Shown here in pieces: positions 3,290 through 27,558 of a DNA stretch of 64,000 nt. A program made the position numbers and the translations under genes. The notes under the pieces were generated by a model. The model searched no databases and had not been told where the DNA came from. It saw only the letters and a program-made list of their open reading frames with translations. The DNA comes from Solirubrobacterales bacterium. GTDB lineage: Bacteria; Actinomycetota; Thermoleophilia; Solirubrobacterales; 70-9. The stretch's first letter is position 1. Every line of letters begins with the position of its first letter. Where the stretch lies: positions 1,260 through 65,259 of the forward strand of contig DASTXV010000054.1 in assembly GCA_035765335.1 (NCBI GenBank), read 5' to 3'.

Positions 3290-4485
3290 GCGGTCCTCCC
3301 GTAGCGCTCCAGAACTCGGTTCAGCTTGCGCGGCTGGATGTTGGCCCGGGTGACGTCGCCGCCGTAGTGCTCGAGCAGGCGCGGGTCCATCACCCGCCGC
3401 CAGAGCGGCGGGAACCAGGCGAGGACGATCATCCCCGCGTAGCCGGTCGGCAGCTGCGGCGCCTCGTCGACGTGGCGCAGCGCCTGGTAGCGGCGGGTCG
3501 GGTTGGCGTGGTGGTCCGAGTGCCGCTGCAGGTGGTAGAGGAGGACGTTGGAGGCGACGTTGTTGCTGTTCCAGCTGTGCTCGGGGAGGCAGCGCTCGTA
3601 GCGGCCGTCCTCGCGCTTCTGGCGCAGCAGGCCGTAGTGCTCGAGGTAGTTGACGACCTCCAGCAGCGAGAACCCGATCACCGCCTGGACCAGCAGGTAG
3701 GGCAGGACGACCGGGCCGAAGGCGACGGCGAGGGCGCCGAAGAGGACGACGGTCATCGCCCAGGCGCTCAAGACGTCGTTGTGGAGGCTGAAGCGCGACT
3801 TGCCGAGGCGGTCGAGCCGGGCCGCCTCGATCCCCCAGGCCGAGCGCAGGCTGCCGGCAACGGTGCGCGGCAGGAAGGCCCAGAAGCTCTCCCCCAGCCG
3901 CGAGCTGGCGGGGTCCTCGGGGGTCGCGACTTTGACGTGGTGGCCGCGGTTGTGCTCGATGAAGAAGTGGCCGTAGCCGGTCTGGGCGAGGGCGACGCGG
4001 CTGAGCCACTTCTCGGAGCTGGCGCGCTTGTGGCCGAGCTCGTGCGCGGTGTTGATCGCGATCCCGCCGACCACGCCCATCGTCAGCGCCAAGCCGATGT
4101 TTTCGATCAGCGTCAGCTCCCCGCTCCCCCACATCCAGCAGGCGAAGACGAGCCCGGCGTACTGGATCGGGATGAAGAGGTAGGTGCACCAGCGGTAGTA
4201 GCGGTCCTGCTCGAGGAACTTGAGGACGCTGTCGGGCGGGTTGGTCGAGTCCATCCCGATCGCCATGTCGAGCAGCGGGAAGATGACGAAGACGAGGAAC
4301 GGGCCGATGAACCACATCCCCCCGAAGTCGGTCAGCGACCAGTAGAGCCAGGCGAAGAAGGGCGAGAGCGGGACGACGATCCCCAGCAGCCACGCATAGC
4401 GCTTCCCGTCCGTCCACTCCGCCGGATTGACCTCCACGTCGTCGTGGTGGTGATGGTGATGCAGGTGCTCCGCGTGTGCCTCCAC
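3286..4485 (-). CDS. alkB: alkane 1-monooxygenase (integral-membrane di-iron hydroxylase)
   Basis: His boxes HELGHK, EHNRGHH and LQRHSDHH. GTG start preceded by AAGGAGGG. N-terminus contains HLHHHHHH. Confidence 0.95.
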   Translation of the reverse strand: MEAHAEHLHHHHHHDDVEVNPAEWTDGKRYAWLLGIVVPLSPFFAWLYWSLTDFGGMWFIGPFLVFVIFPLLDMAIGMDSTNPPDSVLKFLEQDRYYRWCTYLFIPIQYAGLVFACWMWGSGELTLIENIGLALTMGVVGGIAINTAHELGHKRASSEKWLSRVALAQTGYGHFFIEHNRGHHVKVATPEDPASSRLGESFWAFLPRTVAGSLRSAWGIEAARLDRLGKSRFSLHNDVLSAWAMTVVLFGALAVAFGPVVLPYLLVQAVIGFSLLEVVNYLEHYGLLRQKREDGRYERCLPEHSWNSNNVASNVLLYHLQRHSDHHANPTRRYQALRHVDEAPQLPTGYAGMIVLAWFPPLWRRVMDPRLLEHYGGDVTRANIQPRKLNRVLERYGRTA

Positions 4486-5718: not shown

Positions 5719-8134
<2,416 letters not shown>

Positions 8135-13500: not shown

Positions 13501-13567
13501 CCAGCACGGGCATCGCCATCAAGGCCCCGAGACACATGAGAAGCAGCGCAAGCGAGCGCTTTGCCAT
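10538..13567 (-). CDS. large secreted Cys-rich protein, paralog 1 of 3 (unknown family)
   Basis: ATG preceded by GGAGGG. Signal peptide MAKRSLALLLMCLGALMAMPVLAQA. Collinear conserved blocks with the two upstream ORFs. Ends CGKKKKGKK. Confidence 0.85.
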   Translation of the reverse strand: MAKRSLALLLMCLGALMAMPVLAQADTGNIVESQEEPLEKENGFQAGTCTENSEEEDPAKEFCSAETPGLFFTQAGGHPPIGFTQYIVRHDVVGPTPFGTLEPIEEPIANRTIKTLRVDLPPGLTVNPQATEKCSRAAFETKVETEPGKFAQVPNCPDGSIVGEEEVWLVVNTAGAVPAPPPAPPGTFLPKGFVIKPNPAQGTKVPVYNIEPEPGEPARFGFVIAFQRVVFLETEVAWENDFHESFTIRLPEPSVPFSTLKSRLVNFGQEAGNQKTGTAGDGTYITNPTTCFDPDQLPTLYSTWFRAESWGEPNATFPAGSTPWEAKLPEGMQATGCDLVPFDPTVEVNPGTSAVDSPAPVTVTTRLPFDPAKEGGEVRNGGTEGISQSHVRKAEVQMPAGMGLNPAGAQGLVACTDAQFNKGERTYTNECPAESKIGTVEVDSPPLAELLTGDVYVGEQKSSDPESGDLYRILIEAKNENEGIAARLVGRVKANKTTGQLTAEIYDDLQGQFTDQPVGLPQVPFEEIRLHLKGSKDVLSSPPICSTEGESTFEPWARPDTNVKTKSKVTLSSDPGGGACPATMAERKFAPSYTARTNSTKARAYSPFRVRIGRTDGQQELKVVDVTLPKGLTGKLAGIPYCPEPAIAAAIGKSGQAEKSNPSCSSDSYIGTVTTQSGTGSNPLQLSGIAYLAGPYKGAPLSMVTITPAVAGPFDLGTVVVRVALNVNPETAQIRAVSDVIPDVFGGAKLDIRLIDLNVDRGGFMLNPTNCKAQATAGTINGGGADPTNPAAFSSYAVSDPFQATQCNKLAFKPKLKIQLFGGTTRNKYPRLKATLTARKADANMARTAVTMPRSLFLEQGHIGTVCTRPQLAAHQCPKASVYGKAWAKSPLLSKKLAGKVYLVSSNNELPDLLVDLRGQVDIHLRGVISSGSTGGLKTVFRKVPDVPVSKFVLNMKGGKKSLLVNSQNTCAKPQRAIVKMKGQNGKKKNNNRQKLNIVSCGKKKKGKK

Positions 13568-13755: not shown

Positions 13756-16692
13756 CTAGGTTCCCTTCTTCTTCCCGCAGGGAGTGCGCAGCTTCGGCTT
13801 GCTGTTCGCCCGCTTCCCGTTCTGGGCTTTGATCTTGATGATCGCTTTGACCGGCTTCGCGCAGAGGTTCACGGAGTTGACCAGGAGGCCCTTTTTGCCG
13901 CCGGGCAGAGTCATCACGAACTTGCTCACCGGGACGTCGGGGACTTTCCCGAAGGTGGTGCGGAGGCCGCCGCGGAAGCTGTCGATGCGGCCGACCAGAT
14001 CGATCGTCACCTGCCCCTCGAGGTGGGCGACCAGATCCGGCAGCGTGTTGTTGGAAGAGCGCAGATATACGGGCCCCTCCAACGGCTTGCCGAGCAGCGG
14101 CGTGAACGCCCGCGCCCGACCGTAGATCGACCGCTTCGGGCATTTGTCAGCGGCAAACTGGACCCGGGTGCAGACCGTGGCGAGGCTCGCCTGGTCGAGG
14201 AAGAGCGCCCGCGGCAGCGCCACCGAGGCCCGGCGGATGTTGGCGTCCTTGCCGCGCGCCCGCAGCACCGCGCGCAGTTTCGGGTGCTTGGCCCGCTGGG
14301 TCTTGCCGAAGAGGCGGATCTTCAGCTTCGGGCGGAATTTGAGCTTGCGGCAACCGCTCGCCTGGAAGGGCTCGGCGACTTTGAAGGGGGCGAATGCGTT
14401 CGGGTTCAGCGGGTTCGCGCCGCCGCCGTAGATCGCCCCCACCGTCTCACCTTTGCGGCAGTTGGTGCCGTTGAGGGTGAAGTCCTTGCGGTTGACGTTG
14501 AGGAAGATCGAGCGGATGTCGAGCTTGGTGCCGCCGAAGACGTCGGGGATCTCGTCGGTCTTCGGGTGGATCCGGGCCGTCTCCGAGGCGAGGAAGAGCG
14601 GCACCCGGACGACCACGTTGCCGAGGTCGAACGGACCGGCGATCGCCGGCGTCACGACGACGATCGAGAGCGGCGCTCCTTTGTGGCGGCCGGCGAGGTA
14701 GGCGTCGCCCTCGATCTCCAGGGGCGAGGGGCCGGTGCCGGCCTGCACTTTGGCGATCCCGATCTTGCTGCCGTCCGGGCAGCTGGCGTTTTTCCTCTCC
14801 GCCCGGCCGGAGCGCTCTTCGGCGCCGGCGATCGCTTTCGGCGGGCAGTAGGGAACGCCTTTCAGCTTCGCCGTCGCCCCCGGCGGCAGCAGGATGTCGA
14901 TCCCTTTCAGCTCCTGCTGTCCCGGCGGGCGGGTGATGTTGGTCGAGAACGGGGTGAAGGTCTTCGCCCGGTCGCTTTTCGGCTTGGCGTTGAAGCCGGG
15001 CGCGAAGGGGCGCTGGCCCATCGTTTTCGGGCAGGGCCCGCCACCGGGGAGCGAGGCGAGGTCGAATTTGCTCGAGGGAGTCGCCGGGCCTTTGCCGGAG
15101 AACTGCGCCGACCACGGGGTCAGCTGGGTGCTGGTGGTGTTCGGCCCGCAGGTCGGGGGGCTACTGAGAGCGGCTTTGGCGCCGTCGTCGATATCGATCT
15201 TGAAGCTGGTGAAGGGAACCTGCGGCAGCCCATTCGGCAGGTTGTCGGAGTTGCCGCCCCGCAGCACGTTCTTGGGCGGGTCGTCGAAGACCGCGGTCAG
15301 CTGCCCGGTCTTCGCGTTGGCGATGACGTTGCCGACCAGCCGCAGGTCGACGCCGTAGCGGTCGGAGAAGGCGTGGACGAGGATCCGGTACTCCTCCCCG
15401 GATTCCGGGTCGCGGCTCTTCTGCTCGCCGACGTAGACGTTGCCGGTCAGCGGCCCCTCCGGCAGCGGCGGCGTCGCCACCGTCACCGTCCCGACCTTCG
15501 AAGCCGGCGGGCAGGCGACCGGGTTGCGGGTCCCCTTGCCGAACTGGGCGTCGGTGCAGGCGGCGAGCCCGTTGGCAGCGGAGGGGTTGAGCCCCATCCC
15601 CTGCGGCAGCGTCACCCGCGCCGTCCTCATCGTCGAGGTTTCCTGGCCGGTGGCGCTCGGTTCGACCGGCAGCTTCACCTCGGTGACCGCCCCGGCGGGA
15701 GAGTCGACCTGTTTGGTTCCGGGATCGACCTCGATCGAGGGGTTGAAGGGGATCGAGGCGCAGTCTTTCGGGCTCGTCCCCGGCGGCAGCTTCGACTCGA
15801 CGAAGGGCGAGCCGTTGGGGAAGCTCGGGTCGGTGTTTTCGATCGAGTCGGCCCGCGCGTAGGTCGAGTAGGTGTGTTCGTGGGCGGGCTGCGTCGGGTC
15901 GAAGCAGGTGCTGGGGGCGCTGATGAAGTAGCCGACCCCCGGATCGACATGGGCGCGACCGTTGAAGATGAGCCGGTTCTGGAGCAGTTTCACGTCGGGG
16001 ACCTTGGGCACCTGGATCGTGAAGCCCTCGTGGAAGTCGGACTCCCAGGCGACGTCCGCCTCCAGGTAGATGTCGCTCGGCGGCAGCAGCGGCAGGTCCG
16101 GGACCGGTTCGACCGTGAAGCCGAAGCGGGCGGGCTGGCCCGGTTTCGGTTTCAGGTTGTAGACCGAGGCGGTGATCGGCACCGGCGGCAGCAGCGGCGC
16201 TTCCGGCGAGGCGAGGACGACGCTTTCGCCGACTTTGGTGTTCGGCGGGCAGTCCCGCGGCCGTTCCGCCTCGCACTGCGGGGTCGCGCCCGGGTTGACG
16301 CTGAGCCCGACCGGCAGGTCGACCCGCAGCGTCTTCATGTTCACTTCCGGCTCTTTGTGCGTGAGTTCCGTTTTGTGCCGGACGATGAACTGGGTAATCC
16401 CGAACGGCGGGTGGCCGGCGGCCGTTTCGTAGAACTCGACTTTCGGGCTGTCAGGAGCGCAGGTCGGCGTGTTGCAGGTCCCCGCCTGCCACCCGTCTTC
16501 GGAGTTCGGCGGGTTGTTCTGCGGCTCGAAGACGACTTCCCCGGCCTGCGCCGCGGGAGCGAGCAGGGCCGCAAAGACGGCCGCGAGCAAAATGGTCTGG
16601 ACGACTGGCTTCCTCACCTGCCAGGTCCGTACCCATCTCACCCAGGACTTAATCGCGACGGGCAGAGGGGGCGGGGTACCTCCTCCAGACAC
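13756..16692 (-). CDS. large secreted Cys-rich protein, paralog 2 of 3 (unknown family)
   Basis: Maximal ORF. The real start is probably an internal GTG (about 16617-16641) giving signal peptide VRKPVVQTILLAAVFAALLAPAAQA. Ends PCGKKKGT. Confidence 0.8.
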   Translation of the reverse strand: MSGGGTPPPLPVAIKSWVRWVRTWQVRKPVVQTILLAAVFAALLAPAAQAGEVVFEPQNNPPNSEDGWQAGTCNTPTCAPDSPKVEFYETAAGHPPFGITQFIVRHKTELTHKEPEVNMKTLRVDLPVGLSVNPGATPQCEAERPRDCPPNTKVGESVVLASPEAPLLPPVPITASVYNLKPKPGQPARFGFTVEPVPDLPLLPPSDIYLEADVAWESDFHEGFTIQVPKVPDVKLLQNRLIFNGRAHVDPGVGYFISAPSTCFDPTQPAHEHTYSTYARADSIENTDPSFPNGSPFVESKLPPGTSPKDCASIPFNPSIEVDPGTKQVDSPAGAVTEVKLPVEPSATGQETSTMRTARVTLPQGMGLNPSAANGLAACTDAQFGKGTRNPVACPPASKVGTVTVATPPLPEGPLTGNVYVGEQKSRDPESGEEYRILVHAFSDRYGVDLRLVGNVIANAKTGQLTAVFDDPPKNVLRGGNSDNLPNGLPQVPFTSFKIDIDDGAKAALSSPPTCGPNTTSTQLTPWSAQFSGKGPATPSSKFDLASLPGGGPCPKTMGQRPFAPGFNAKPKSDRAKTFTPFSTNITRPPGQQELKGIDILLPPGATAKLKGVPYCPPKAIAGAEERSGRAERKNASCPDGSKIGIAKVQAGTGPSPLEIEGDAYLAGRHKGAPLSIVVVTPAIAGPFDLGNVVVRVPLFLASETARIHPKTDEIPDVFGGTKLDIRSIFLNVNRKDFTLNGTNCRKGETVGAIYGGGANPLNPNAFAPFKVAEPFQASGCRKLKFRPKLKIRLFGKTQRAKHPKLRAVLRARGKDANIRRASVALPRALFLDQASLATVCTRVQFAADKCPKRSIYGRARAFTPLLGKPLEGPVYLRSSNNTLPDLVAHLEGQVTIDLVGRIDSFRGGLRTTFGKVPDVPVSKFVMTLPGGKKGLLVNSVNLCAKPVKAIIKIKAQNGKRANSKPKLRTPCGKKKGT

Positions 16693-16744: not shown

Positions 16745-19639
16745 CTACCGCCGAGTCTTGGTCCGCTTGCCCGCTTTGCCCTTGCAGCCGGGCGTCCGCA
16801 GCGGCAGCTTCTTCACCCGCAGTTTCTTGCCGTTCTGAGCCTTGAACTTGAGGATCGAGTGGTTCTTGCGGCCGCAGAGGTTTTGCGAGTTGACCAGCAG
16901 GCCTTTCTTGCCGCCCTTCATCCGCAGCACGAACTTGCTCACCGGCACGTCGGGGACACTGGCGAAGACGGTCCGCATCCTTCGTTTCCGGGAGTCGATG
17001 ACGCCGCGGAGCCGCGCGTTCACCTGCCCCTTGAGGTCGGCCAGGAGGTCCGGCAGTTCGTTGTCGGATGAGGTCAGGTAGACGGGGCCGGCCACTTTCT
17101 CGTCCAGCAGCGGACTCTCGGCCCAGGCGTATCCATATATAGAGCGACGCGGGCAGGCCGAGGCGGCGAGCTGGACGCGGGTGCAGATCGTGCCGATGTG
17201 GCCCTGGTCGAGGAACTGGGAGCGCGGCAGCGTCAGCGCCGCCCGCTTGATGTTGGCGTCGCCTTTGCGGGCGACCAGCACCGCCTGGAAGGCCGGGTGC
17301 CCGTTGCGCCGCATTTTCTTGCGGTTGCCGATCAGCTTCGTGAACAGCTTCGGGCGGAATTTCAGCGCCCCGCAATCGCTCGCCCGGAAGGGGGCGTTGA
17401 CGCCGAAGGCGCTGAAGGCGGCCGGGTTGTTGGGGTCACCGCCGCCGCCGTTGAGGGCGCCGGTGGTGGCGAGGGGCTCGCAGCTGGTCGGGTTGAGGGT
17501 GAAATCGGGTCGGTCCATCTTCAGGTCGACCGAGCGGACGCTGAGCAGGGTGCCGCCGAAGACGTGCGGGATCGGGTCGGAGAGAGCCCGGATCTGCGCC
17601 GTCTCGGGATCGACGAACAGGGCCACCCTCACCACGACCGTGCCGAGATCAAACGGCCCGGCCGTGGCGGGGGTGACCACTGCCAGGGAGAGAGGGGCCC
17701 CGTTGTAGGGGCCTGAGAGGAAGACCTTGCCATCGATGCTAAGCGGGGCGGAGCCGGTGCCGGCGGCGACGGTGGCGCTGCCGACCTGGCTGGCGGCGGG
17801 ACAGCTGGAGCTCGCTTTCTCCTCCTCGCCGGACCTACCGGCCGCGGCGGCGAGCGCCTCCTCCGGGCAGTAGGGGATGCCGCGCAGGCTGCCGGTCATC
17901 CCCGGCGGCAGGACGATGTCCGTCCCTTTCAGCTCCTGCTGGCCGTCGCCGCGGTTGATCTGGATCGAGAGGGGGCTGAAGGCGCCGGCTTTCGAGCTCG
18001 CGGGCGCGGCCCCGAAGGCGGGCGAGAACGGACGCTCGGCCATCGTTTTCGGGCACGGGCCGCCGCCCGGGAGGCTGGCGAGCGTGAACTCGCCGCCGGG
18101 GGTGGCGGGCGCGTTGCCCGACCACGGCGTCATCACGGCGCCGCTCTGATTGGGTCCGCAGGTCGGCGGGCTGCTGAGAGCCGCCTGCGCCCCGCCGTCC
18201 AGCTTCACCTCGAAGCTCTCGACTTGGGACTGCGGCGTGTCGGAGATGGTGGTGGTCAACTGACCCGTCTGCGGATCGGCGCTGACCTTGCCGATCAGGC
18301 GGACGTCGATCCCGTAGCGAGGCGACACCGCGTTGATGAAGATCCGGTACAGGTCCCCGGAGAGGGGGTCGCGGCTGAGCTGCTTGCCGACGTAGACGGG
18401 TCCCTTGAGCGCCGGGCCTTCTTCGTTCTCTTCCGGCAGCGCCGGGGAGTCGATGACCACCGAGCCGACCCGCGAATCCTCCGGGCAGGCGACCGGGTTC
18501 CTCGTGCCCTTGCCGAACTGCTCGTCGGTGCAGACCTGCAGGCCGTTGGCGGCCGAGGGGTTGAGGCCCATCCCCAGCGGCAGCGTCACCTTCGATTCCC
18601 TCGTCGTCGAAGTCTGCTGTTCGCTCTCCGCCAGGGTCAGGTGCGGAATGTCGATGTCGACCGTTGCCCCGGCCGGCGAGTTCACCTCCGCGGTGCCGGG
18701 CTCGACGGCGAGCGAGGGGTCGTAGGGAATCGAGTCGCATTCTTTGGGCGAGGTGCCCGGGGGGATGGGCGATTCGAGCGGCGGTTCGGCGCTCTGCGGC
18801 CAGACGTAGTCCTCGTAGGGCGCTTTCTGTTCGAGCTGCGGGTAGGAAGCGGCGAGCAGGTAGGTGGAGTAGACACTGCCGGATTCGGTGAAGGCTTCGC
18901 CGAGGCAGGTGCTGGGGGTGGTGATGAAGGTGCCGTCCCCGGCGCGGCCGTTGAAGACCAGGCGGTTTTTGAGGACGAACCCTTCGAGGGCGGCGGGCAG
19001 CACTTTGGGGACCTCAATCGTGAAGCCCTCGTGGTAGTTGCCGGACCAGTCGGCGTCTCCCTCCAGGTAGACGTTGTTGTCCGCGAGCCTGAGTCCGAAC
19101 CGCGCGCTCTCCCCTTCGACCGGAACGACGTTGTAGACCTCGGCGTGGAGGGGAGCCGACCCCCCGAGCAGCGGGTCGCCGGCGGTGACGTAGCTGTCGC
19201 CGACGTGAGATCCCGGCGGGCAGGTGGTGGGGTCGGCCTCGAAGGTGGCGAGCGGGCAGCGCGGGGTCGCGCCCGGGTTGACGTTGAGGCCGACCGGCAG
19301 GTCGACCCGGACCCGGGCCAGTTCCGCTTCCGGTTTCGGCCCCAGGGTGCCGTCGCTGTGCTTGACGATGAACTGGGTGAAGCCCCAGTGGGGGTGGCCG
19401 GCGGCCTGTTCGAAGAACCATTCCGGCGTTTCAACCGAGCAGACTTCCGCCCCCGGCGCCCCCGGGTTGGGGGCTTCGGTGTCGCAGGTCCCCGCCTGCC
19501 AGCCGGAGTCGACTTTGGGGTTATGCGGATCGCTGGGGGCAATGATTTCTTCGGTGCCGCCGGCGAACGCCGTCGATGCCAGCCCGAGCACGAGCGCTGC
19601 GCATAGAGAAAGAACCGAGCCGATAAGTCGTCCCCGCAT
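16745..19639 (-). CDS. large secreted Cys-rich protein, paralog 3 of 3 (unknown family)
   Basis: ATG at 19639 is preceded by TAGGAGGAG. The ORF track's 19666 start lacks an SD. Signal peptide MRGRLIGSVLSLCAALVLGLASTAFA. Ends GCKGKAGKRTKTRR. Confidence 0.85.
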   Translation of the reverse strand: MRGRLIGSVLSLCAALVLGLASTAFAGGTEEIIAPSDPHNPKVDSGWQAGTCDTEAPNPGAPGAEVCSVETPEWFFEQAAGHPHWGFTQFIVKHSDGTLGPKPEAELARVRVDLPVGLNVNPGATPRCPLATFEADPTTCPPGSHVGDSYVTAGDPLLGGSAPLHAEVYNVVPVEGESARFGLRLADNNVYLEGDADWSGNYHEGFTIEVPKVLPAALEGFVLKNRLVFNGRAGDGTFITTPSTCLGEAFTESGSVYSTYLLAASYPQLEQKAPYEDYVWPQSAEPPLESPIPPGTSPKECDSIPYDPSLAVEPGTAEVNSPAGATVDIDIPHLTLAESEQQTSTTRESKVTLPLGMGLNPSAANGLQVCTDEQFGKGTRNPVACPEDSRVGSVVIDSPALPEENEEGPALKGPVYVGKQLSRDPLSGDLYRIFINAVSPRYGIDVRLIGKVSADPQTGQLTTTISDTPQSQVESFEVKLDGGAQAALSSPPTCGPNQSGAVMTPWSGNAPATPGGEFTLASLPGGGPCPKTMAERPFSPAFGAAPASSKAGAFSPLSIQINRGDGQQELKGTDIVLPPGMTGSLRGIPYCPEEALAAAAGRSGEEEKASSSCPAASQVGSATVAAGTGSAPLSIDGKVFLSGPYNGAPLSLAVVTPATAGPFDLGTVVVRVALFVDPETAQIRALSDPIPHVFGGTLLSVRSVDLKMDRPDFTLNPTSCEPLATTGALNGGGGDPNNPAAFSAFGVNAPFRASDCGALKFRPKLFTKLIGNRKKMRRNGHPAFQAVLVARKGDANIKRAALTLPRSQFLDQGHIGTICTRVQLAASACPRRSIYGYAWAESPLLDEKVAGPVYLTSSDNELPDLLADLKGQVNARLRGVIDSRKRRMRTVFASVPDVPVSKFVLRMKGGKKGLLVNSQNLCGRKNHSILKFKAQNGKKLRVKKLPLRTPGCKGKAGKRTKTRR

Positions 19640-19701
19640 TGAATTTCTCCTCCTAAAACTTCCCATTAAGCATTCTCGACGAATAACCTACCCGAAAATC
19701 A

Positions 19702-19736: not shown

Positions 19737-20123
19737 ATGCCAACCCAAAACGGACATTCCCCCCACGCTTATTCTGCAAACGGCAACGGCAACGGCTTTT
19801 CCCCGCAAAACGGTCGAAAAGAGGAGTCGGTGCCCGTCAACTGGGAGCGCCTCGCGCGGGCGACCGCGCATCCTTTACGCGTCTCGATCCTCGAAATCCT
19901 CGGAATCGACGGCGGCCGGATCCTCTCCCCCAGCGATCTCAGCCGCGAGCTGCAGATCCCCCTCAGCAACACCAACTACCACGTCACCGAGCTGGCGAAA
20001 GCCGGCCTGATCGAACTGGTGCGGGAGCGACAGGTGCGCGGCGCGACCGAGCACTTCTACCGCCTGCCGGTATCCGAAGGAGCGAGCGCAAAGGAGCGAG
20101 GACACCTCTCAGTTGCAGCCTAA
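19737..20123 (+). CDS. ArsR-family winged-helix transcriptional regulator
   Basis: HPLRVSILEIL...LSPSDLSRELQIPLSNTNYHVTELAKAGLIE is a typical ArsR/SmtB wHTH. Confidence 0.8.
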   Translation: MPTQNGHSPHAYSANGNGNGFSPQNGRKEESVPVNWERLARATAHPLRVSILEILGIDGGRILSPSDLSRELQIPLSNTNYHVTELAKAGLIELVRERQVRGATEHFYRLPVSEGASAKERGHLSVAA

Positions 20124-20149: not shown

Positions 20150-20479
20150 CTACTTCTCGCGCACGATCACCGTGCGGCCGTCGGCGAGCCGGTAGACGGT
20201 GCCCACCGGCTCCCCCCTGCCGACGACGCGCTCGCCCGGCTTCAGCTCGAGCGGCTTCACCTCCTGGTTGCGCTCGGCCACGACCGGCTCCTGCGCGCTC
20301 GCCGCCTGGGCGCGCTCCTTCGCCTGCTCGGTCAGCGCCGAGGTGAGGTCGAGCGAGGAGAGCGCCGCCAGCAGGAAGGCGACCGAGAGGACGATCCCGA
20401 GGTCGAAGAGATTGACGAGGCCGTCGAGCGGATCGCCGGCGCGGTCGTCGCGGCTGCGAGCCCGGGCGGTCACCCTCAC
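20150..20479 (-). CDS. DUF2149-like small membrane protein (usual partner of MotA/TolQ/ExbB channels)
   Basis: GDPLDGLVNLFDLGIVLSVAFLLAAL TM segment plus a C-terminal beta-rich part. The GTG start overlaps the TGA of the upstream ExbB fragment (GTGA). Confidence 0.55.
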   Translation of the reverse strand: MRVTARARSRDDRAGDPLDGLVNLFDLGIVLSVAFLLAALSSLDLTSALTEQAKERAQAASAQEPVVAERNQEVKPLELKPGERVVGRGEPVGTVYRLADGRTVIVREK

Positions 20480-20715
20480 GGCGCCACCGCCCAGTGGCTG
20501 CGCGGGGTGGCGGTGCCAATGGTCGGCGCCGGGGCGAGACGGGCGGCGACGTACTCGACGTCGGAGTAGTCCTGGGCGTAGAGGCGGTCGCGGATGAGGG
20601 AGATCGAGAAGGCGATCGCGCCGACCAGCAGGCCCGCCACGGTCACCCCGAAGGCGACCCGGAGGTTCTCGGTCAGCGTCGCCACGTCGCCGTCGGCGAG
20701 CCCGGCCAGGGCTGT
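20476..20715 (-). pseudogene. C-terminal fragment of a MotA/TolQ/ExbB proton-channel gene
   Basis: TALAGLADGDVATLTENLRVAFGVTVAGLLVGAIAF matches the conserved last TM region of the family. An in-frame TGA at 20716-20718 is immediately followed upstream by low-GC island DNA. The N-terminal TM helices are missing. Confidence 0.65.
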
Positions 20716-20721
20716 TCAGTT

Positions 20722-21075
20722 CTAGCTAGGACTAGCTGAGCCTCTCTCGGAACGCTTTAACTCCCGTTCACAGAGCTTTGCAGCAACATCCCGTGATTCC
20801 CTTGGAATAGCCTTGGTCACACGTTGTACGACAGCCTCCATAGTGGGCTCTACCCCAAGAAGCAGGGAGAGCTGTTTGATGGTTCGACCGCGACACCGAA
20901 GTACTATCCATTCCTTTACTGCGGCCAGATCACCGGCTTCTACAGGTCTGAGTTCTGAGAAGCGCTGAGGTCCTCGGTCTTTTCCCTGGTTCTCAGTCAA
21001 GATAACCCCCATACCAATTAAGCCAAGGATCAATGCCAGCAGAATGAAATTTCTCCACATCCTCATTTGGTGCAT
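20722..21075 (-). CDS. candidate Rhs immunity protein, N-terminally membrane anchored
   Basis: Immediately downstream of rhs. Three in-frame ATGs; the one at 21066 gives an ATGA overlap with the rhs stop. TM WRNFILLALILGLIGMGVILT followed by an ~85-aa soluble domain. Low GC. No family recognised. Confidence 0.5.
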   Translation of the reverse strand: MHQMRMWRNFILLALILGLIGMGVILTENQGKDRGPQRFSELRPVEAGDLAAVKEWIVLRCRGRTIKQLSLLLGVEPTMEAVVQRVTKAIPRESRDVAAKLCERELKRSERGSASPS

Positions 21076-24000
21076 ATTGACCCATAGGTAAAGCTAAACG
21101 AGTCTCGGTAAGTGTGACTGCGACGATTTCCCTTCGGGGTTTCCCAGGAAACCTGGAACAGTACTTCAACTTCTCCGGTCCGGACAACACCGCAAGGCAC
21201 ATTCGACGTGAACGAAGTTGATGCTTCTGCGTGGCATGCAAATTTCGGAGCTACATCGCCACACTCCTCCAATGGGCCTTTTGCCGCCGGAATATATCGC
21301 ATCTTGCCTGACAGGGTTTCGTAAGCACCTCCGGTTATCACAGCCTTGACCTTTACGTTTTTGGGTTTCCCTTTGCAGCGGATCCATGCACTAGCCGATA
21401 CTCGGATTTCCCTTCCCGCTCCACGATGGGGCTTCAGTTTTTGTTCCCGTGGCTTGCAGGGGGGCGCTTCTCCGCTTAGGTCAAATACGTTAATCGGGTC
21501 AGCATTGCTGTAGTCATATGCGGTCGCTGAGCCTCCTCGCACGGGGTCGGGTGACAGGAACCGACCTATCGTCGGCACATAACTCCTTACTCCCATTTGA
21601 ATAACACCCGAAGGAAGTTCGGTTCGGCGCTGCTTCCCACCAAGCCAGCCATAGCGATCGGCGTTGCCAGGGATCGGATTGCCAAACTCGTCGTAGCGGG
21701 TGGTTTTTACTAGACTGGTGACTTCCTGATCGATCGGGGCGGTCGCCACGATGTCGCCGTGGAGGTTCGCCAGCTGCAGCGTCGTCTCATCTTGACCTCC
21801 GGCGCTGGTTTCCTTAAGGGCCACGAGTTCGCCGCCTAAACCCATCATGTTCAGGGTCCGAACCTGTCCGCGCTCGGTCCATGCGGGAGAGTCGGAGGGG
21901 CCGGCGTAGTGAAATATTTCCGTTCCTTCTAAACCACCTGCTTGGTGGCGCGCTCGTTGGCGCAGGGAGGCATCGAGTTCGAACGTGTTGGTGATCCCAC
22001 CCTGGGACTGACTTGCGACCATGTCGGTCGAGAAGTAGCTGGTCGTCAGCTCTTCGTCGCCCGCAAGGTGGCCAGGCAATTTCGTTATCCGGCCGAAGCT
22101 GTCGTAGATCAATTCAGCAGCAACCAGACGGTCTGCCGCATCGTATTCGTAGGTCTTGGTCGTGCCGCCAGTGTTCGCACATGCTCCCTCGATCCCGGGT
22201 GATCGGGTCGTCAACGATTTCCGGTTGGAGTTGAGGTCGTAAACATAGGAGCGGGTGGTGCATTGGCCATCGTCCGGACTTTCCTCTGCGAAGATAAGTC
22301 GACCCGCCTTGTCGTAGCCGTAGCGCTGAGCACCGAGCGTTCCGTTTTCGCTCAGTATCTGACCCTCGATCGAGCGCTCGAGGTCGAAGTCGAGCCAAGT
22401 GCAGCTTTCACCGCAGTAGCTTTCCTTCGTGTAGGTGAGGTGGGTTGATTCACCCACCTCGTTGTAGGACGTGGTAGCGGTGAGACCATTGGGGAGACCC
22501 TGTTCGATCATCTTGCCGTCGGCGTCATAGCGTGCGGTGAAGATGCCGGCTTCGCTTTCCAGCTCGACCGGCACACCGCTAGCTTCGTCGTAGCGAACCA
22601 GCTGCGCCCCAATCCACTGCCCATTCTTTTCGACGTTCATCCAGTAGGGTCGGCCGGCAGCGTCGTACAACGTATTTGCCTTACCCCCATCCGCATCTTC
22701 ATAGCGTTTGACGCGACCGAGAGCGTCGTAGGTAGTCCTAGTTGCCTGACTGTCGAAACCCGTGCAATTGACGGAGCATAGGAATTTCTGCTCTACCGGC
22801 CTGCCATTAGTCGAGCTGTAGAGCGTTTCAACCATCGGCACGGCCTGCCCACCACCTTCAATCTTCTGCGTGCGTGGGCGCCCCGCCATGTCATAGCCCA
22901 GAAGGGTCCTGCGAAGGTTTTCGCTGCCGCCGCCAGGACTTTCGCGAATCTCCGTCGGCTGATCGAGGTTGTTATAGGTCCAGAACGTTTTCACCAGCAG
23001 CTGCGGCAAGCCAGCCGTTCCCGGCTGAGCCGCAGGCATCACCTTGCACGGCAGGCCCGCGTACTGGGGCACTCCACCGCATCCAGGTTGTTCGGAATTG
23101 GCCGTTTGCGAGTAGTAGATCGTCCTGGTGCTCCCGGCCCCTCCGCCTCCGGGATTCGAAGGCTGACGCACTTCCCTTGGCTGGCCGGTAGTGGCGTCGT
23201 AGGCCATCACCGAGCGAATGTTGAGGCCGCCGGGGTCGACAATGGTTTCAATCGGCTTGCGCAGAGTCCAGTCGTAGCGGGTTTCGGTGACGCGCTGATC
23301 GGAGTCGCTGCTCTGGCCTGGGACGGCGGCGCCGGTCGTTTCCTTCGTCGGCAGGCGCGGCGCGGATTCCCCCTCTTTCAGCGCTGGCGCGCCTTCATCG
23401 TATTTGACGGTGGTGTGCTGGCGCGCCTCGACCGTTTCGCCCGATTCGAGTCGCACCTCATGTAGAGGGCCCCAAGACTCGAGCATTTCGGTGCCATCAG
23501 CCGAGTAGACGGAATGGCTGTCCAGCTCGCGGGAGCGACCGACGGAATCGACGGACCCCAGCGCCCGCAGCCGGTTCTGCGCAGAGAGCGAGCGGATGAC
23601 GTTACCGTGATCATCGCTTTCGGTCGTGGTTATCGCCGATCCCGCTACTCCGGGCGGCGCAGCCGAAGCCGTGTTGACCTCATAGCCTTCCGGGTCCAGG
23701 TAGTGGATCCCGGCCCCCGTGTAGTCGCTCGGTCTTGGACTGTCCGGAACGTGACTTGGAGGAAAGATCGCGGTCGCGTCGACGGGGTAATCACTCTGAC
23801 CCCATTTTGCGACGGTTGAGGGGCTCATGTTGTATGGAGCCTCTTCGCCACTGAGCGGCACCTGGTACACGATGGTCGTCTGGGCAGTGGAAGGGCTCTC
23901 GAGCAGAGTCGCCCGCTTGACGCTCTTCAAGCGATTGAAGATCTCCCGATCGCGCCAATGATATTTCGCCACAGGGTCCCAGGGAAATTCAGTCGCTTTG

Positions 24001-27000
24001 TAGTATTCGAATTCCCAAGGCTCCTCTCCCGGTGGAGTCAGAGCAAGCATATCGTTGGAAGGAGAGGACGGGTAGGTGTAGGTCTCTTTCAAGGCGGGTG
24101 AGATCCGCGGATCCCATTGCGCGATCAGGCGGTCCTCCGAGTCGTATTCGTAGCGCGACACCACCTGCGCCTCCGCCGGCTGGCCGGAACTGTTGTAGTA
24201 GGTGATCGACGACAGGCGCCAATGCCCCATGCACTCACAGGACGAGTACTGGAAGGCGAGGGTCCTGCACCCAGGGGTGCTGATCGATCCTTCGACACCG
24301 CAGGTGACGCCCGCTGGGGCTGGCGCGATCATCTTCACCAAGCGATAGGCGGTGGTGCCCGGAACATACTCGTAGACGTGACGCGCAGATTTGGCCGTCG
24401 CCTGCCAGGAGATCGAGTTAGGCCGATACGAGCCCTGCGTCCCGTACTGGTTCTTGATGAAGGTCGTCTGCGCCCCATTGGGGTCGGTGAGCACGAAGGC
24501 TTCGCCTTCCTTGCTGAGGACGAATTCCTTCATGTAGTCGGGCGCCACGTATTGGCCACCGACGATTTCGAAAGGTACGCCGTTGCCTTCGTTGTCGATG
24601 AGTTCGATCCAGTCGGCAGCGGGAATGCCCGCTTCGACTTCGAAGGTTTCGCACTGCAGAGAGCCGCCTTCCCACCAGCATTCTTCTTCGAAGACAGGTG
24701 GGACCGCATCCTCATGGCGTTCCTGCAGCTCCACCCATGCTTCGCCTTGGAATTCCTGCTCCATTGGCCCGGACGGCATCCACTGGCGCCCCAGCGCTTC
24801 CGAGCTGGTGACGTAGCCCGGCCTGGATTGATACGACCGCGCGAATTCCAGGCTGCTCTCCGTCCCCGGCACAGGAATCGAGACATCGATCCTGGTGATC
24901 GTGAAATTGCCGGTGAGGAGGTCCAGGTTGACTGGACCGATCGATTCGGTGGCATCCGTCGGGGCGCCAACGCCCCCAAACTCGTTGAGAAATTCGACCG
25001 CCACCGGCTGGCTTGCGCCTGCCGCGCTCACGCCTCCGTCGAAGACTGCCCTCAACTTGATGTCTTCTTCGTACATCCCCCATTTCATTTCCTTTACAGC
25101 TTCCAGGTAGTTGAAGTACACAGTCTCACTATGACCCGGATTGCTGCTCACCGGCAGCGGCCAGCTCACTGGTTCGCCTTTGGAGTCGAGTACGTAATCG
25201 CTTGGAATCGTCCAAAATTGTTTCCAGCCTGGGATCTTCATCTGGAAGGTGACCCCGGTGACTCCGCCGCTCGTGGGAGCCTCCCCCCACTGGGCCTTCA
25301 GCGTGAAGTAGTGACTACTCTTCTTTCCTTCTTCGGGAGTGGTGACCTTGCTGGTGGTGGGCGCGTCCGGATAGATCGCCGTGTTGAACGTCCATTTCGC
25401 CGGGGTAGCGTCAACATTTCCCGCCGTGTCGGTCGCGACGACGGTAAACGTATGCCAGCCTGAACCAAGGTGGAGGTTCTCAGGAAGGACGTAGGGAGAC
25501 TGACAGCTTTCCAGCTCCCCTCCATCGAAGGAGCATTGGTAGGTCGAGGCCGGCTCGCTCGCCGAGAACTCGACCGACGTCTGCTGTCCGCTCGTGTAGC
25601 TGGGCTGGGAAGACGTGATCTCAGTCTGAGGCGCCTCGGTGTCGACCTCGAAGTTACGCTCGACCGGCGATTCGTCCTGGTTGCCGAAAGCGTCCGTTGC
25701 TCGCACGCGGAAGATATGGACCCCATCGGCAAGGGCCTGATAGGACGAGGGCGAAGCACAGGGGCCGAAGGCCCCTTGGTCCATCGAACATTGGAAGGAG
25801 GTGTTTATCTCCGAAGCCTCAAAGCTGAAACTTGCGTCCGCAATGGCGACAAGTCCCTCGGGACCACCAGTTATGGAGGTGTCCGGGCTTTCCACGTCAG
25901 TCTCGTACCACCGCATCCCCAAGGTCACCATGTCTTCTTCGGCGCTGGCAGGGCGTGATTTGCCCACCGCCGTGCAGACGGTCTGGGAGCTGCAGGAGAC
26001 GCCGGCGAGGGCGCTGAAGTCTTCTTCGGCGGGGTTGGGTGAGCTCTGGACCGCCCATTGGCTGCCGTCCCAGCGCTCGACGAGGGTCTTTTCCTCGGCG
26101 GGTTCCTGAAAGATGCCTTCGCCTTTGACGGCGCTGACGTAGTGGCCGACTGCGAGGCAGCTGGTCGCGGTGGTGCAGGAGACGGAGCGCAGCCGCGGAG
26201 GCCATTTGGCGTCGGCCGGGGTCGCCGTCGCCGCGACCGACCAGGTCACGCCTTCGAGCCGCTCGGAGAAGGGCTTGGCGCCACTGCCGTCGTTGTAGGT
26301 GCCGATCGCCATGCAGCTGGAGGACGAGAAGCAGGAGACGGCCTCCAGGCTGCTCGAGGTCGCGCCGGTTGGGGTGGGGGTCGAGTCGAGCGACCAGCTG
26401 CTGCCGTTCCAGCGGGCGGCCAGGGTCACCTTCCGGTAGGTGGAGCCGGGCGGGCGCGATTCCACGGTGCCGACCGCGGTGCAGGCGGTCCCCGAGGCGC
26501 AGGAGACGCCGGTCAGTTCGGGGAGCCGCGTTTCGCCCGCGGGGGCGGGAAGCGCCTGCGGCGACCAGGAGCTGCCGTTCCAGCGCTCAGCGTGGGCTTT
26601 CCACTCGCCGGTTGCGGCCTGGTAGCGGCCGACCGCGGTGCAGGCGGCGGCCGAGGTGCAGGAGATGTCCACCAGCCTCGTGTTGGTCGCGCCGCTGGGG
26701 ATCGCGGGGGTCTCGGTGGCGACGAACCAGGTGCCTTCACCTGGGGAGAATTCGAACTCCTGCATCCGCCAGGCGCCGTTTTCGTTCTTGGCCACCGTGG
26801 CGCAGAAGGTCGCCGTCGGGCAGGAGACGGCCTTCACCTGGCCGGCGAAGGTGCGCACCATTTTCCATTCGGAGCCTTTCCAGACTTGGGCGAATCCTTT
26901 GCCGAGGTAGTAGTCGTTGCCGATGCCCATGCACATCGACGCGGTCGGGCAGGAGACGTCCTCGAGCTCGCTCTTGTTGAGCGGCGTCGGGTTGGCGGTG

Positions 27001-27131
27001 GGTTGGAGGGACCATTCGGTGGCACCGGCCTGACCGATTGGTCCTACTGAGATCAGAAGAGCGAGGAGCACGCCAAGCAACGAGACCGAAGCGGCGACGC
27101 TTCGCTGATTACACCCTTTTCTCCAATCCAT
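21063..27131 (-). CDS. Sec-signal Rhs/YD-repeat polymorphic toxin (WapA-like)
   Basis: ATG at 27131 is preceded by AGGAAGG (the track's TTG at 27185 is also possible). Signal/TM VAASVSLLGVLLALLISVGPIGQAGA. Seven SC-x5-C-x-A-x-G repeats and two Ig-like modules. Many YD repeats (YDALGRV, YDAAGRP, YDADGKM, YGYDKAGRL, YEYDAADRL). Rhs core end GRFLSPDP...YDYSNADPINVFDLSGE, then a 134-aa unique tail. Confidence 0.9.
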   Translation of the reverse strand: MDWRKGCNQRSVAASVSLLGVLLALLISVGPIGQAGATEWSLQPTANPTPLNKSELEDVSCPTASMCMGIGNDYYLGKGFAQVWKGSEWKMVRTFAGQVKAVSCPTATFCATVAKNENGAWRMQEFEFSPGEGTWFVATETPAIPSGATNTRLVDISCTSAAACTAVGRYQAATGEWKAHAERWNGSSWSPQALPAPAGETRLPELTGVSCASGTACTAVGTVESRPPGSTYRKVTLAARWNGSSWSLDSTPTPTGATSSSLEAVSCFSSSSCMAIGTYNDGSGAKPFSERLEGVTWSVAATATPADAKWPPRLRSVSCTTATSCLAVGHYVSAVKGEGIFQEPAEEKTLVERWDGSQWAVQSSPNPAEEDFSALAGVSCSSQTVCTAVGKSRPASAEEDMVTLGMRWYETDVESPDTSITGGPEGLVAIADASFSFEASEINTSFQCSMDQGAFGPCASPSSYQALADGVHIFRVRATDAFGNQDESPVERNFEVDTEAPQTEITSSQPSYTSGQQTSVEFSASEPASTYQCSFDGGELESCQSPYVLPENLHLGSGWHTFTVVATDTAGNVDATPAKWTFNTAIYPDAPTTSKVTTPEEGKKSSHYFTLKAQWGEAPTSGGVTGVTFQMKIPGWKQFWTIPSDYVLDSKGEPVSWPLPVSSNPGHSETVYFNYLEAVKEMKWGMYEEDIKLRAVFDGGVSAAGASQPVAVEFLNEFGGVGAPTDATESIGPVNLDLLTGNFTITRIDVSIPVPGTESSLEFARSYQSRPGYVTSSEALGRQWMPSGPMEQEFQGEAWVELQERHEDAVPPVFEEECWWEGGSLQCETFEVEAGIPAADWIELIDNEGNGVPFEIVGGQYVAPDYMKEFVLSKEGEAFVLTDPNGAQTTFIKNQYGTQGSYRPNSISWQATAKSARHVYEYVPGTTAYRLVKMIAPAPAGVTCGVEGSISTPGCRTLAFQYSSCECMGHWRLSSITYYNSSGQPAEAQVVSRYEYDSEDRLIAQWDPRISPALKETYTYPSSPSNDMLALTPPGEEPWEFEYYKATEFPWDPVAKYHWRDREIFNRLKSVKRATLLESPSTAQTTIVYQVPLSGEEAPYNMSPSTVAKWGQSDYPVDATAIFPPSHVPDSPRPSDYTGAGIHYLDPEGYEVNTASAAPPGVAGSAITTTESDDHGNVIRSLSAQNRLRALGSVDSVGRSRELDSHSVYSADGTEMLESWGPLHEVRLESGETVEARQHTTVKYDEGAPALKEGESAPRLPTKETTGAAVPGQSSDSDQRVTETRYDWTLRKPIETIVDPGGLNIRSVMAYDATTGQPREVRQPSNPGGGGAGSTRTIYYSQTANSEQPGCGGVPQYAGLPCKVMPAAQPGTAGLPQLLVKTFWTYNNLDQPTEIRESPGGGSENLRRTLLGYDMAGRPRTQKIEGGGQAVPMVETLYSSTNGRPVEQKFLCSVNCTGFDSQATRTTYDALGRVKRYEDADGGKANTLYDAAGRPYWMNVEKNGQWIGAQLVRYDEASGVPVELESEAGIFTARYDADGKMIEQGLPNGLTATTSYNEVGESTHLTYTKESYCGESCTWLDFDLERSIEGQILSENGTLGAQRYGYDKAGRLIFAEESPDDGQCTTRSYVYDLNSNRKSLTTRSPGIEGACANTGGTTKTYEYDAADRLVAAELIYDSFGRITKLPGHLAGDEELTTSYFSTDMVASQSQGGITNTFELDASLRQRARHQAGGLEGTEIFHYAGPSDSPAWTERGQVRTLNMMGLGGELVALKETSAGGQDETTLQLANLHGDIVATAPIDQEVTSLVKTTRYDEFGNPIPGNADRYGWLGGKQRRTELPSGVIQMGVRSYVPTIGRFLSPDPVRGGSATAYDYSNADPINVFDLSGEAPPCKPREQKLKPHRGAGREIRVSASAWIRCKGKPKNVKVKAVITGGAYETLSGKMRYIPAAKGPLEECGDVAPKFACHAEASTSFTSNVPCGVVRTGEVEVLFQVSWETPKGNRRSHTYRDSFSFTYGSICTK

Positions 27132-27485
27132 GCAGCCCCGCCTTCCTACAGGAGTTTTTCCTTGACCGGAGCCGCAAACACTCAATGCGTACCAGTTGGC
27201 GAGGCATCCTGCACAGGAAGGAACGCCAAGTCCATACTAAATTTTTTACTTAATGTTTCCTAGATATGTTTCCTAAACTAGATGCCTTGTCCAAACAGGG
27301 CGTCGACGGCGAGCTTTATCTGACCGACGACAAAGTAACCGCTGGTACTAGACAAGTAGACCAAGAACTGCCAGATGAGCCCTGATGAAAGATCAAACAC
27401 TCCCTGGTCATCCACGCTGCTCAGGCGGCTTATGCGAAAGAAGGTCAACTAGCTCGAGGAACTGTTGCCTGCCTAGAAGATCAAA

Positions 27486-27558
27486 AGCGGACGACGGGGG
27501 TCGAACCCGCGACCTCAAGCTTGGGAAGCTTGCGCTCTACCAACTGAGCTACGTCCGC
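27486..27558 (-). tRNA. tRNA-Gly (anticodon CCC)
   Basis: Minus strand GCGGACGTAGCTCAGTTGGTAGAGCGCAAGCTTCCCAAGCTTGAGGTCGCGGGTTCGACCCCCGTCGTCCGCT folds as a cloverleaf with a 7-bp acceptor, D stem GCTC/GAGC, anticodon stem CAAGC/GCTTG, loop TTCCCAA and a T arm with TTCGACC. CCA is not encoded. Confidence 0.9.

Follow-up and report, generated by a model that had tools for sequence, protein, structure and literature searches.

A candidate toxin/immunity module with a six-cysteine payload at the end of a putatively Sec-type Rhs gene from a Solirubrobacterales bacterium

The DNA analysed in this work is a stretch of 64,000 nucleotides (nt) from a Solirubrobacterales bacterium (GenBank assembly GCA_035765335.1, contig DASTXV010000054.1, positions 1,260 to 65,259 of the forward strand), referred to below as the window, and our interest was in the end of a long rhs gene and in the small open reading frame (ORF) that follows it. 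The last 134 amino acids (aa) of the Rhs protein, here called the tail, and the 117-aa product of the downstream ORF constitute with high probability a toxin/immunity module. Judged by its sequence, the locus is a Rhs/YD polymorphic toxin system, since repeats, core domain, motif geometry, polymorphism and a linked immunity gene were all found. According to our searches the tail represents a real but rare family placed outside all described toxin families, and the 117-aa ORF appears to lie outside any described immunity family. The gene architecture, the motif geometry, the core family, the linkage and co-divergence of tail and ORF, the tail polymorphism and the composition step were all read directly from the sequences. 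The features on which the argument depends are the following:

21063..27185, minus strand: rhs gene, an ORF of 2040 aa from a TTG, with its stop codon at 21063-21065
27021..27131, minus strand: predicted Sec signal peptide, aa 19-55, MDWRKGCNQRSVAASVSLLGVLLALLISVGPIGQAGA with cleavage before TEW, read by eye from the sequence
21471..21695, minus strand: Rhs-associated core domain TIGR03696 (NCBIfam), C-terminal plug / aspartyl autoprotease, aa 1831-1905
21468..21548, minus strand: paired cleavage motifs DPVRG-GSATAYDYSNADPINVF-DLSGE, aa 1880-1906, preceded by SP and with 17 aa between DPVRG and DLSGE, from the sequence
21066..21467, minus strand: C-terminal tail, putative toxin, aa 1907-2040 (134 aa), delimited by the core boundary
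20722..21075, minus strand: candidate immunity gene, 117 aa, overlapping the rhs end by 13 nt from the ATG at 21075
20995..21051, minus strand: N-terminal membrane helix / signal anchor of the immunity protein, aa 9-27, NFILLALILGLIGMGVILT, with a mean Kyte-Doolittle value of 2.43
20725..20958, minus strand: conserved immunity domain of ~75 aa, aa 40-117, from family alignments

The order of domains in the Rhs protein was a predicted Sec-type signal, Cys-pair repeats, immunoglobulin (Ig)-like domains, a DUF6531 plug, the YD/RHS shell, the core end and the tail. The true start is likely the ATG at 27131 (Met19), and the N-terminus read by eye was signal-like, with a basic n-region, a hydrophobic core and small residues at positions -3 and -1. 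RHS_repeat (PF05593; E = 1.6e-9, four stretches) and the Ig-like Big_13 domain were matched in Pfam and the YD repeat TIGR01643 in NCBIfam (E = 7e-10), and the DUF6531 plug stayed just under its Pfam gathering cut-off (22.8 vs. 24.1 bits). No match to PAAR, LXG or NHL was obtained in Pfam or NCBIfam, hence no adaptor domain of a type VI (T6SS) or type VII (T7SS) secretion system was found. The region between aa ~57 and 460 (25806..27017, minus strand) comprised five or more repeats, ~52-61 aa apart, each with SCxxxxxCxA[VI]G at its end; this Cys-pair region had no match in Pfam or NCBIfam and might fold as a propeller-like domain at the surface or for target binding.

The match to TIGR03696 (43.3 bits, cut-off 32.5) covered profile positions 1-75 of 76 and ended at aa 1905. 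The core end reads ...GRFLSPDPVRGGSATAYDYSNADPINVFDLSGE and is followed by the tail, APPCKPREQKLKPH...SFSFTYGSICTK. DLSGE is a variant of DPxGL, and the form D[LI]xG[EK] was kept in all relatives. Rhs1 of Photorhabdus, for which the cleavage site has been mapped by experiment, shows the same spacing of 17 aa between two DPLGL motifs; the catalytic residue there is D1338, in the second motif, and A1343 is the first residue of the toxin (PMC8636562). Because the motif arrangement in the window is homologous to that of Rhs1, whose toxin runs from the Ala after the second motif (PMC8636562), the tail was taken to start at A1907, and by analogy an autoproteolytic cut is predicted between E1906 and A1907. 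The end of the TIGR03696 match and the spacing of the motifs, equal to that of the Rhs1 cleavage geometry, bear out an earlier note on this DNA, made from the sequence alone, which had placed the end of the Rhs core at the position of a DPxGL-type motif.

All fetched loci were translated in six frames and searched with a profile of the immunity domain. An immunity homologue was found directly downstream of the tail in 10 of the 11 loci that bear it (the window, L002, L003, L004, L034, L035, L037-41, which are one locus type, L042, L043 and L044). Of the 29 related Rhs loci with other tails only L008 had one, an orphan copy that follows a different tail and the downstream ORF belonging to it; none was found in the other 28. 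Pairwise identities of tail and partner co-varied across the nine paired loci compared (Spearman 0.79; Mantel r = 0.83, p = 1e-4). Homologues of both ORFs, at 28-81% identity, kept the same arrangement in independent contigs, which indicated that both are real genes and not chance ORFs. Displaced copies were also present: L004 contained a complete orphan cassette of core end, tail and partner behind a full-length Rhs gene with another tail, L042 a 48-aa tail remnant together with a complete partner gene, both preceded by a different Rhs tail and an ORF with several transmembrane (TM) segments, and L036 three orphan partner copies. This linkage to the tail, the orphan cassettes, the tail remnant and the co-divergence are what would be expected of a cognate toxin/immunity cassette.

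Related cores were retrieved from species-representative genomes with the last 207 core residues as query, giving 29 loci with cores of 39-68% identity. The best core matches (56-68%) came from metagenome-assembled genomes of Solirubrobacterales, Conexibacteraceae and Thermoleophilia, followed by Streptomyces and Knoellia cores (39-44%), and they make a Solirubrobacterales-type actinobacterium the most probable host of the window. After the shared motif, these 29 loci bear about a dozen unrelated tail types of 126-161 aa, and ten representative tails of the clade gave no match in Pfam. The number of Cys residues was even and non-zero in 31 of 33 clade tails, and in 26 of the 33 the first Cys lay at most 15 residues from the cleavage site and the last at most 8 from the C-terminus. 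The possibility that the window tail is a divergent member of the L008/11/15/20, L010/12/17/18 or Streptomyces tail families was rejected at the sequence level (hhalign probability <1%). The tails of L008/L011/L015/L020 and of L010/L012/L017/L018, which are Cys-rich and beta-looking, were related to each other (hhalign 96%, E = 3.6e-9).

The base composition changed along the gene. The GC content at third codon positions (GC3) was 0.84 in the N-terminal repeats, 0.72 in the Ig-like domains and shell, 0.54 in the core end, 0.51 in the tail and 0.49 in the downstream ORF, vs. 0.96 in an ORF fragment after the immunity stop and 0.97 in the DUF2149 gene beyond it, with the module boundary at about 20713-20722. 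Equally low values were found elsewhere only in non-coding DNA ahead of rhs (27000-27400; GC 0.52). On account of this GC3 step the tail, the immunity ORF and the last ~75 core codons look like a recent recombination cassette, presumably from a donor of lower GC. The earlier note had stated that tail and ORF have the lowest GC and had read them as a swapped module, and both statements stood; the second is in keeping with the GC3 step, with the other tails on the same core, with the orphan cassettes and with the joint occurrence of tail and ORF.

These data also bear on the explanation that the tail is not a toxin at all but a structural, adhesive or ligand-binding Ig-like module, the ORF being an unrelated small membrane protein or regulator. 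Metazoan teneurins indicate that C-termini of YD shells can be repurposed (PMC13018210), the tail carries no catalytic motif, and the structural comparisons described below returned nothing but Ig-like, adhesin and carbohydrate-binding sandwiches, with scores of 0.51 or less. Nevertheless, in every characterised Rhs protein the payload follows the autoprotease motif, as the tail does here, unrelated tails are swapped on the same core, the downstream ORF goes with the tail and not with the core, both co-diverge, and orphan cassettes as well as the L042 tail remnant with its retained immunity gene are hallmarks of toxin/immunity dynamics, so that we regard a non-toxin as very improbable.

The tail of the window contained 6 Cys, 13 Lys and 10 Arg (isoelectric point, pI, 9.7), and all the tails of the family were basic (pI 9.1-9.9). 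No match to it was found in Pfam, NCBIfam, PADLOC or the sequences of the PDB (phmmer and profile), seven members of its family had none in Pfam, and none was obtained by tblastn in plasmid and phage collections. A word-indexed search of 5.8 billion proteins gave nothing, its profile version retrieved only two known members, and scans of genome contigs with the tail and of metagenome contigs with sub-alignments of the tail and immunity families were empty. When 1.84 billion cluster representatives were searched exhaustively with phmmer, six true relatives emerged (E = 3.5e-20 to 1.3e-8), each of them at the C-terminus of a Rhs protein or fragment and immediately behind D[PL]xNxxD[LI]xG[EK]; P0007, from the same search, was rejected as a spurious match to a eukaryote-like repeat protein. 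Four more tail loci were reached through the immunity domain, with tails closer to that of the window (53-65% identity), which were presumably missed because clusters of Rhs proteins of 2000 aa are represented by members with other tails. The family therefore amounted to 11 loci, always behind the same Rhs core-end motif; it is very rare for searches over billions of proteins, although further members are probably concealed by clustering on the long Rhs core.

Across ten aligned tails, 28-65% identical to that of the window, the residues C4, C31, V38, Y49, I59, G64, P65, C69, G70, C78, C92, W108, T110 and G113 were invariant, and C132 was present in nine, the exception being a frameshifted orphan. 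Six Cys are thus conserved (five invariant plus C132), without CxxC spacing, and no Asp, Glu, His, Lys, Arg or Ser was invariant across this alignment. AlphaFold2 predicted an all-beta structure from the single sequence (predicted local distance difference test, pLDDT, 68) and an eight-stranded beta sandwich from an alignment of seven sequences (pLDDT 87; predicted template modelling score, pTM, 0.79), with strands of 4-15 residues, six of the eight being at least 11 residues long. Foldseek searches of this model in the PDB and BFVD gave only generic Ig-like, arrestin-like, adhesin and carbohydrate-binding sandwiches (best template modelling score 0.51, E ~1e-3); no known toxin fold was among the matches, and envelope-enzyme folds such as YkuD and NlpC/P60 were likewise missing. 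The NPC2/ML domain, a lipid-binding sandwich with three disulfides, was obtained only with the weaker single-sequence model (score ~0.3) and was kept as a lead, not as a match. The description of the tail in the earlier note, namely 134 aa, rich in Lys and Cys (6 Cys), apparently beta-rich and with no recognisable toxin motif, agreed in coordinates and composition with what we found, as well as with the all-beta models and the empty searches. Likewise, no known toxin/immunity pair was detected with profiles or Foldseek for the tail, nor with profiles for the 117-aa ORF.

In the candidate immunity gene, an in-frame Met4 (ATG 21064-21066) would give a product of 114 aa. The earlier note was right in that the ORF overlaps the rhs end, but the ATGA overlap that it described belongs to the Met4 start, and it is the longer overlap listed above that goes with the 117-aa reading. 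In the window, L003 and L034, which are divergent loci, the immunity ATG sits within the codons of the last conserved Cys of the toxin (..A TGC..); this embedding favours the Met1 start and points to translational coupling. As regards the N-terminal TM helix that had been proposed for this protein, the segment aa 9-27 was indeed strongly hydrophobic, with a net charge of +3 on its N-flank and 0 on its C-flank. Among the five TM-bearing partners scored (window, L003, L002, L004 and L035), the hydrophobic 19-mer had a mean Kyte-Doolittle value above 2.1, the N-flank a charge of +2 to +5 and the C-flank of 0 to +2, with +2 on both sides in L035; by inspection, the P0008, P0010 and P0011 partners have 3-4 Lys/Arg ahead of the helix. 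The positive charge on the N-flank predicts, by the positive-inside rule, an N-in/C-out topology. The L034 partner presented a signal- or lipoprotein-like N-terminus, MRRVSRNYRSTLTVIACMMASIALMSQGIAC, in place of the helix.

In the immunity domain D49, W56, G63 and C102 were invariant among sixteen members, and C61 was present in 15 of them. Searches of Pfam, NCBIfam, PADLOC and the PDB gave no consistent Pfam or PDB match for the family, but only scattered sub-threshold matches of single members. A helix-turn-helix (HTH) regulator was rejected as the identity of the ORF, since it was suggested by one sub-threshold match of one member and not family-wide.

On this basis we propose a mechanism to which, taken as a whole, we give slightly better than even chances. 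The Rhs protein would be exported by Sec and fold into a cocoon whose shell encloses the 134-aa tail, and aspartyl autoproteolysis after DLSGE (E1906/A1907) would free it. The released payload, a small basic beta sandwich with probably three disulfides, would harm neighbouring Gram-positive cells from outside the cytoplasmic membrane, at the envelope, where it would more likely bind, perturb or block a component than catalyse a reaction. On the producer, the signal anchor would hold the ~75-aa domain, whose two conserved Cys probably form a disulfide, on the outer face of the membrane, and the domain would bind and neutralise the incoming tail. As the producer is monoderm and the Rhs protein would be Sec-exported, the released payload could reach the membrane surface of a neighbour without an import step. 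Action of the tail from outside, considered separately, seems rather likely; the earlier note had hinted at it from the membrane tether of the immunity protein, and the even-numbered conserved Cys in both partners and the positive-inside topology lend it indirect support. Toxins with this site of action have precedents in TelC and in a bacterial teneurin-like protein, both taken up below. In aerobic Actinobacteria exported proteins are biased to even Cys numbers and to disulfides, and the oxidising machinery is present (PMC2823432).

The same pair could also work in another way, with the tail as an enzyme whose fold is not recognised and whose place of action is the cytoplasm of the target, like a WapA tRNase, and the immunity domain on the cytoplasmic side with the helix as a mere tether. 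Most characterised Rhs/WapA tails are cytoplasmic nucleases or enzymes that target nicotinamide adenine dinucleotide (PMC8636562), immunity paralogues devoid of a TM helix recur in five locus types, and the immunity domain of the window had a weak HTH-like match in Pfam (single member, E = 0.13). In contrast, the lack of any invariant residue of the six types named above, the six conserved tail Cys out of CxxC spacing with two more in the partner, the positive N-flank in every TM-bearing homologue examined, which predicts a C-out domain, the export signal that replaces the helix in the L034 partner and the even Cys counts across the whole Rhs clade all speak against a cytoplasmic enzyme, and we hold it to be unlikely. 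Binding or blocking appears likelier than catalysis because no residue of catalytic type is conserved; the stricter proposition that the tail is non-enzymatic is offered tentatively, at rather less than even chances.

Several points count against an extracytoplasmic toxin/immunity pair of this kind. In the tail locus L001 (5922..6404) no immunity homologue was detected; the rhs end is overlapped there by an ORF of 65 aa with a hydrophobic stretch (5912..6109), which may be a replacement partner or noise. Second or orphan immunity copies without helix or signal occurred in L002, L004, L036 and L037-41, and in L008 such a copy stands alone:

L002, 9813..10139: helix-less immunity copy
L004, 7249..7488: helix-less immunity copy
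L036, 3169..3402, 3515..3691 and 3636..3965: helix-less immunity copies
L039, 1240..1521: helix-less immunity copy
L008, 2111..2434: helix-less immunity copy

These copies, most of which retain both conserved Cys, would be cytoplasmic if functional and so fit poorly with purely extracytoplasmic immunity. The ectodomain of the window immunity protein is basic (pI 9.8), as the tail is, and consequently no simple charge complementarity exists between them. The topology comes from hydropathy and charge counts and not from a dedicated predictor, the structural model of the tail was built on seven sequences only, and the absence of invariant catalytic residues in 10 sequences is compatible with an enzyme. 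Lastly, toxicity, cleavage, binding and neutralisation, disulfides, topology and site of action are all properties that we infer.

Some sister tails of the clade were of a different kind. Those of the upstream Rhs of L004, L005, L021 and L006 displayed a Gly/Ala-rich, glycine-zipper-like end (..GLATVWIPGVGETxxLVGGGxDLAGVAADL..C), which suggests membrane-inserting payloads. Another possibility is that the window tail itself kills by membrane insertion or permeabilisation, as a beta pore or disruptor, within the same module and with no specific envelope target. The basic character of the tails, the long beta hairpins of 11-15 residues, the resemblance of the L004 upstream, L005 and L021 tails to glycine-zipper membrane peptides and the existence of membrane-active payloads in Rhs and teneurin-like proteins, such as Tse5 (PMC10684867) and the C-terminal domain of the Bacillus inaquosorum teneurin-like protein, BiTLP (PMC13018210), would agree with it. 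However, with three putative disulfides the sandwich would be locked and unable to refold as beta pore-formers must, the tail has neither an amphipathic hairpin flanked by Ser/Thr nor a hydrophobic stretch, and immunity to pore-formers is generally a polytopic membrane protein rather than a small soluble ectodomain. A permeabilising tail thus appeared quite unlikely, more so than the cytoplasmic enzyme considered above.

With respect to known systems, the module seems closest in its working to WapA/WapI and to bacterial teneurin-like proteins. WapA/WapI of Bacillus subtilis shares with it an N-terminal Sec-type signal (in the window a predicted one), the YD/RHS shell, the core-end motif, a polymorphic tail and a small immunity gene immediately downstream. 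The WapA tails are tRNases that work in the cytoplasm, where WapI, a soluble protein, is also located. In contrast, the tail of the window is a Cys-rich predicted beta sandwich without nuclease signature and its immunity protein is membrane-anchored, with a domain predicted to face outward; the window Rhs also differs in its N-terminus, with Cys-pair repeats and Big_13, and in its host, which is an actinobacterium.

Teneurin-like proteins such as BiTLP have in common with the window protein the YD shell, the autoproteolytic release of the C-terminus (in the window a predicted one) and a diverse small immunity gene directly downstream (PMC13018210). The C-terminal domain of BiTLP was toxic only with a signal peptide, from which its action outside the cytoplasm was deduced (PMC13018210); it is hydrophobic, with a predicted TM segment, and permeabilises membranes (PMC13018210), whereas the tail of the window is hydrophilic and basic, with six Cys and predicted disulfides. 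Moreover, the window Rhs gave no NHL match in Pfam and thus differs from the teneurin-like 'superfold' of NHL, FN-plug and YD. Two relatives with the same tail, P0003 and P0005, matched NHL repeats and TEN_YD-shell.

The likeness to TelC/TipC of Streptococcus intermedius, an LXG pair, concerns the site of action and is drawn by analogy only: TelC is toxic from outside, where it hits lipid II, and TipC, which gives immunity to it, bears an N-terminal signal sequence for export (PMC5555719). Their scaffolds differ (LXG/T7SS vs. Sec/Rhs), no similarity of sequence or fold exists, and TelC, an enzyme dependent on Ca, has an active site rich in Asp, while no acidic residue is invariant in the tail family of the window. 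T6SS Rhs effectors (Rhs1/Tre23 of Photorhabdus, RhsA and Tse5) and TcC of the Tc toxins resemble the window protein in the shell, the C-terminal plug, the motif spacing, the encapsulated payload and a GC content of the tail below that of the shell (PMC8636562). Unlike the T6SS effectors, the window Rhs has no PAAR, prePAAR or VgrG-binding N-terminus, and its host is monoderm, its export would occur by Sec and its payload family is unrelated.

The class of Rhs toxin/immunity modules is well understood, and what is new here is the unnamed payload and immunity families, without relatives among profiles or structures. Should the tail act outside and without catalysis, this would be a new mode for Rhs cargo in monoderms and would point to an accessible target in the actinobacterial envelope. 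A more specific reading, which we consider rather unlikely, is that the tail is a triple-disulfide binder toxin that sequesters or blocks something essential in the envelope, such as a lipid-linked precursor of the cell wall or a membrane protein exposed at the surface, and that it represents one example of a wider Rhs arsenal. Such an arsenal may comprise Sec-exported Rhs proteins of Thermoleophilia and Streptomyces with payloads of 126-161 aa, even Cys numbers, in most cases a Cys close to either end, and no known domain. If so, the Rhs cocoon would deliver folded extracellular protein antibiotics and not cytoplasmic enzymes. The small payloads with even Cys numbers throughout the clade suggest a larger untapped set of extracellular antibacterials in soil Thermoleophilia and Streptomyces.

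The features that flank the module in the window were the following:

20476..20712, minus strand: 5'-truncated ORF fragment of host-like composition, without an upstream start, beginning right after the immunity stop
20150..20479, minus strand: DUF2149 gene (E = 1e-14)
27486..27558, minus strand: tRNA-Gly(CCC), detected by ARAGORN, 300 nt upstream of the rhs start

The ORF fragment had no match in Pfam or NCBIfam and resembles the remainder of a gene that the incoming rhs module interrupted; it may be a MotA/ExbB-like C-terminus, a guess that neither Pfam nor NCBIfam confirmed. On the other side, a non-coding stretch of low GC (0.52; 27190..27480) separates tRNA-Gly and rhs. The position of the tRNA suggests a tRNA-linked insertion of the module, but no direct repeat of the tRNA-Gly end, as an integration scar, was present elsewhere in the window.

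Beside the Rhs module three tandem paralogues of ~1000 aa (10538..13567, 13756..16692 and 16745..19666, all on the minus strand) displayed 46-52% mutual identity, each with a signal-like N-terminal sequence, 18-19 Cys and a GC3 of 0.84-0.91. They had no match in Pfam or NCBIfam, and by these traits are a putative family of large secreted proteins. A regulator of the ArsR/HTH_20 type is encoded near the module (19737..20123, plus strand), and HTH_20 proteins also adjoin related Rhs loci (L002, 1..614; L004, 8561..9229).

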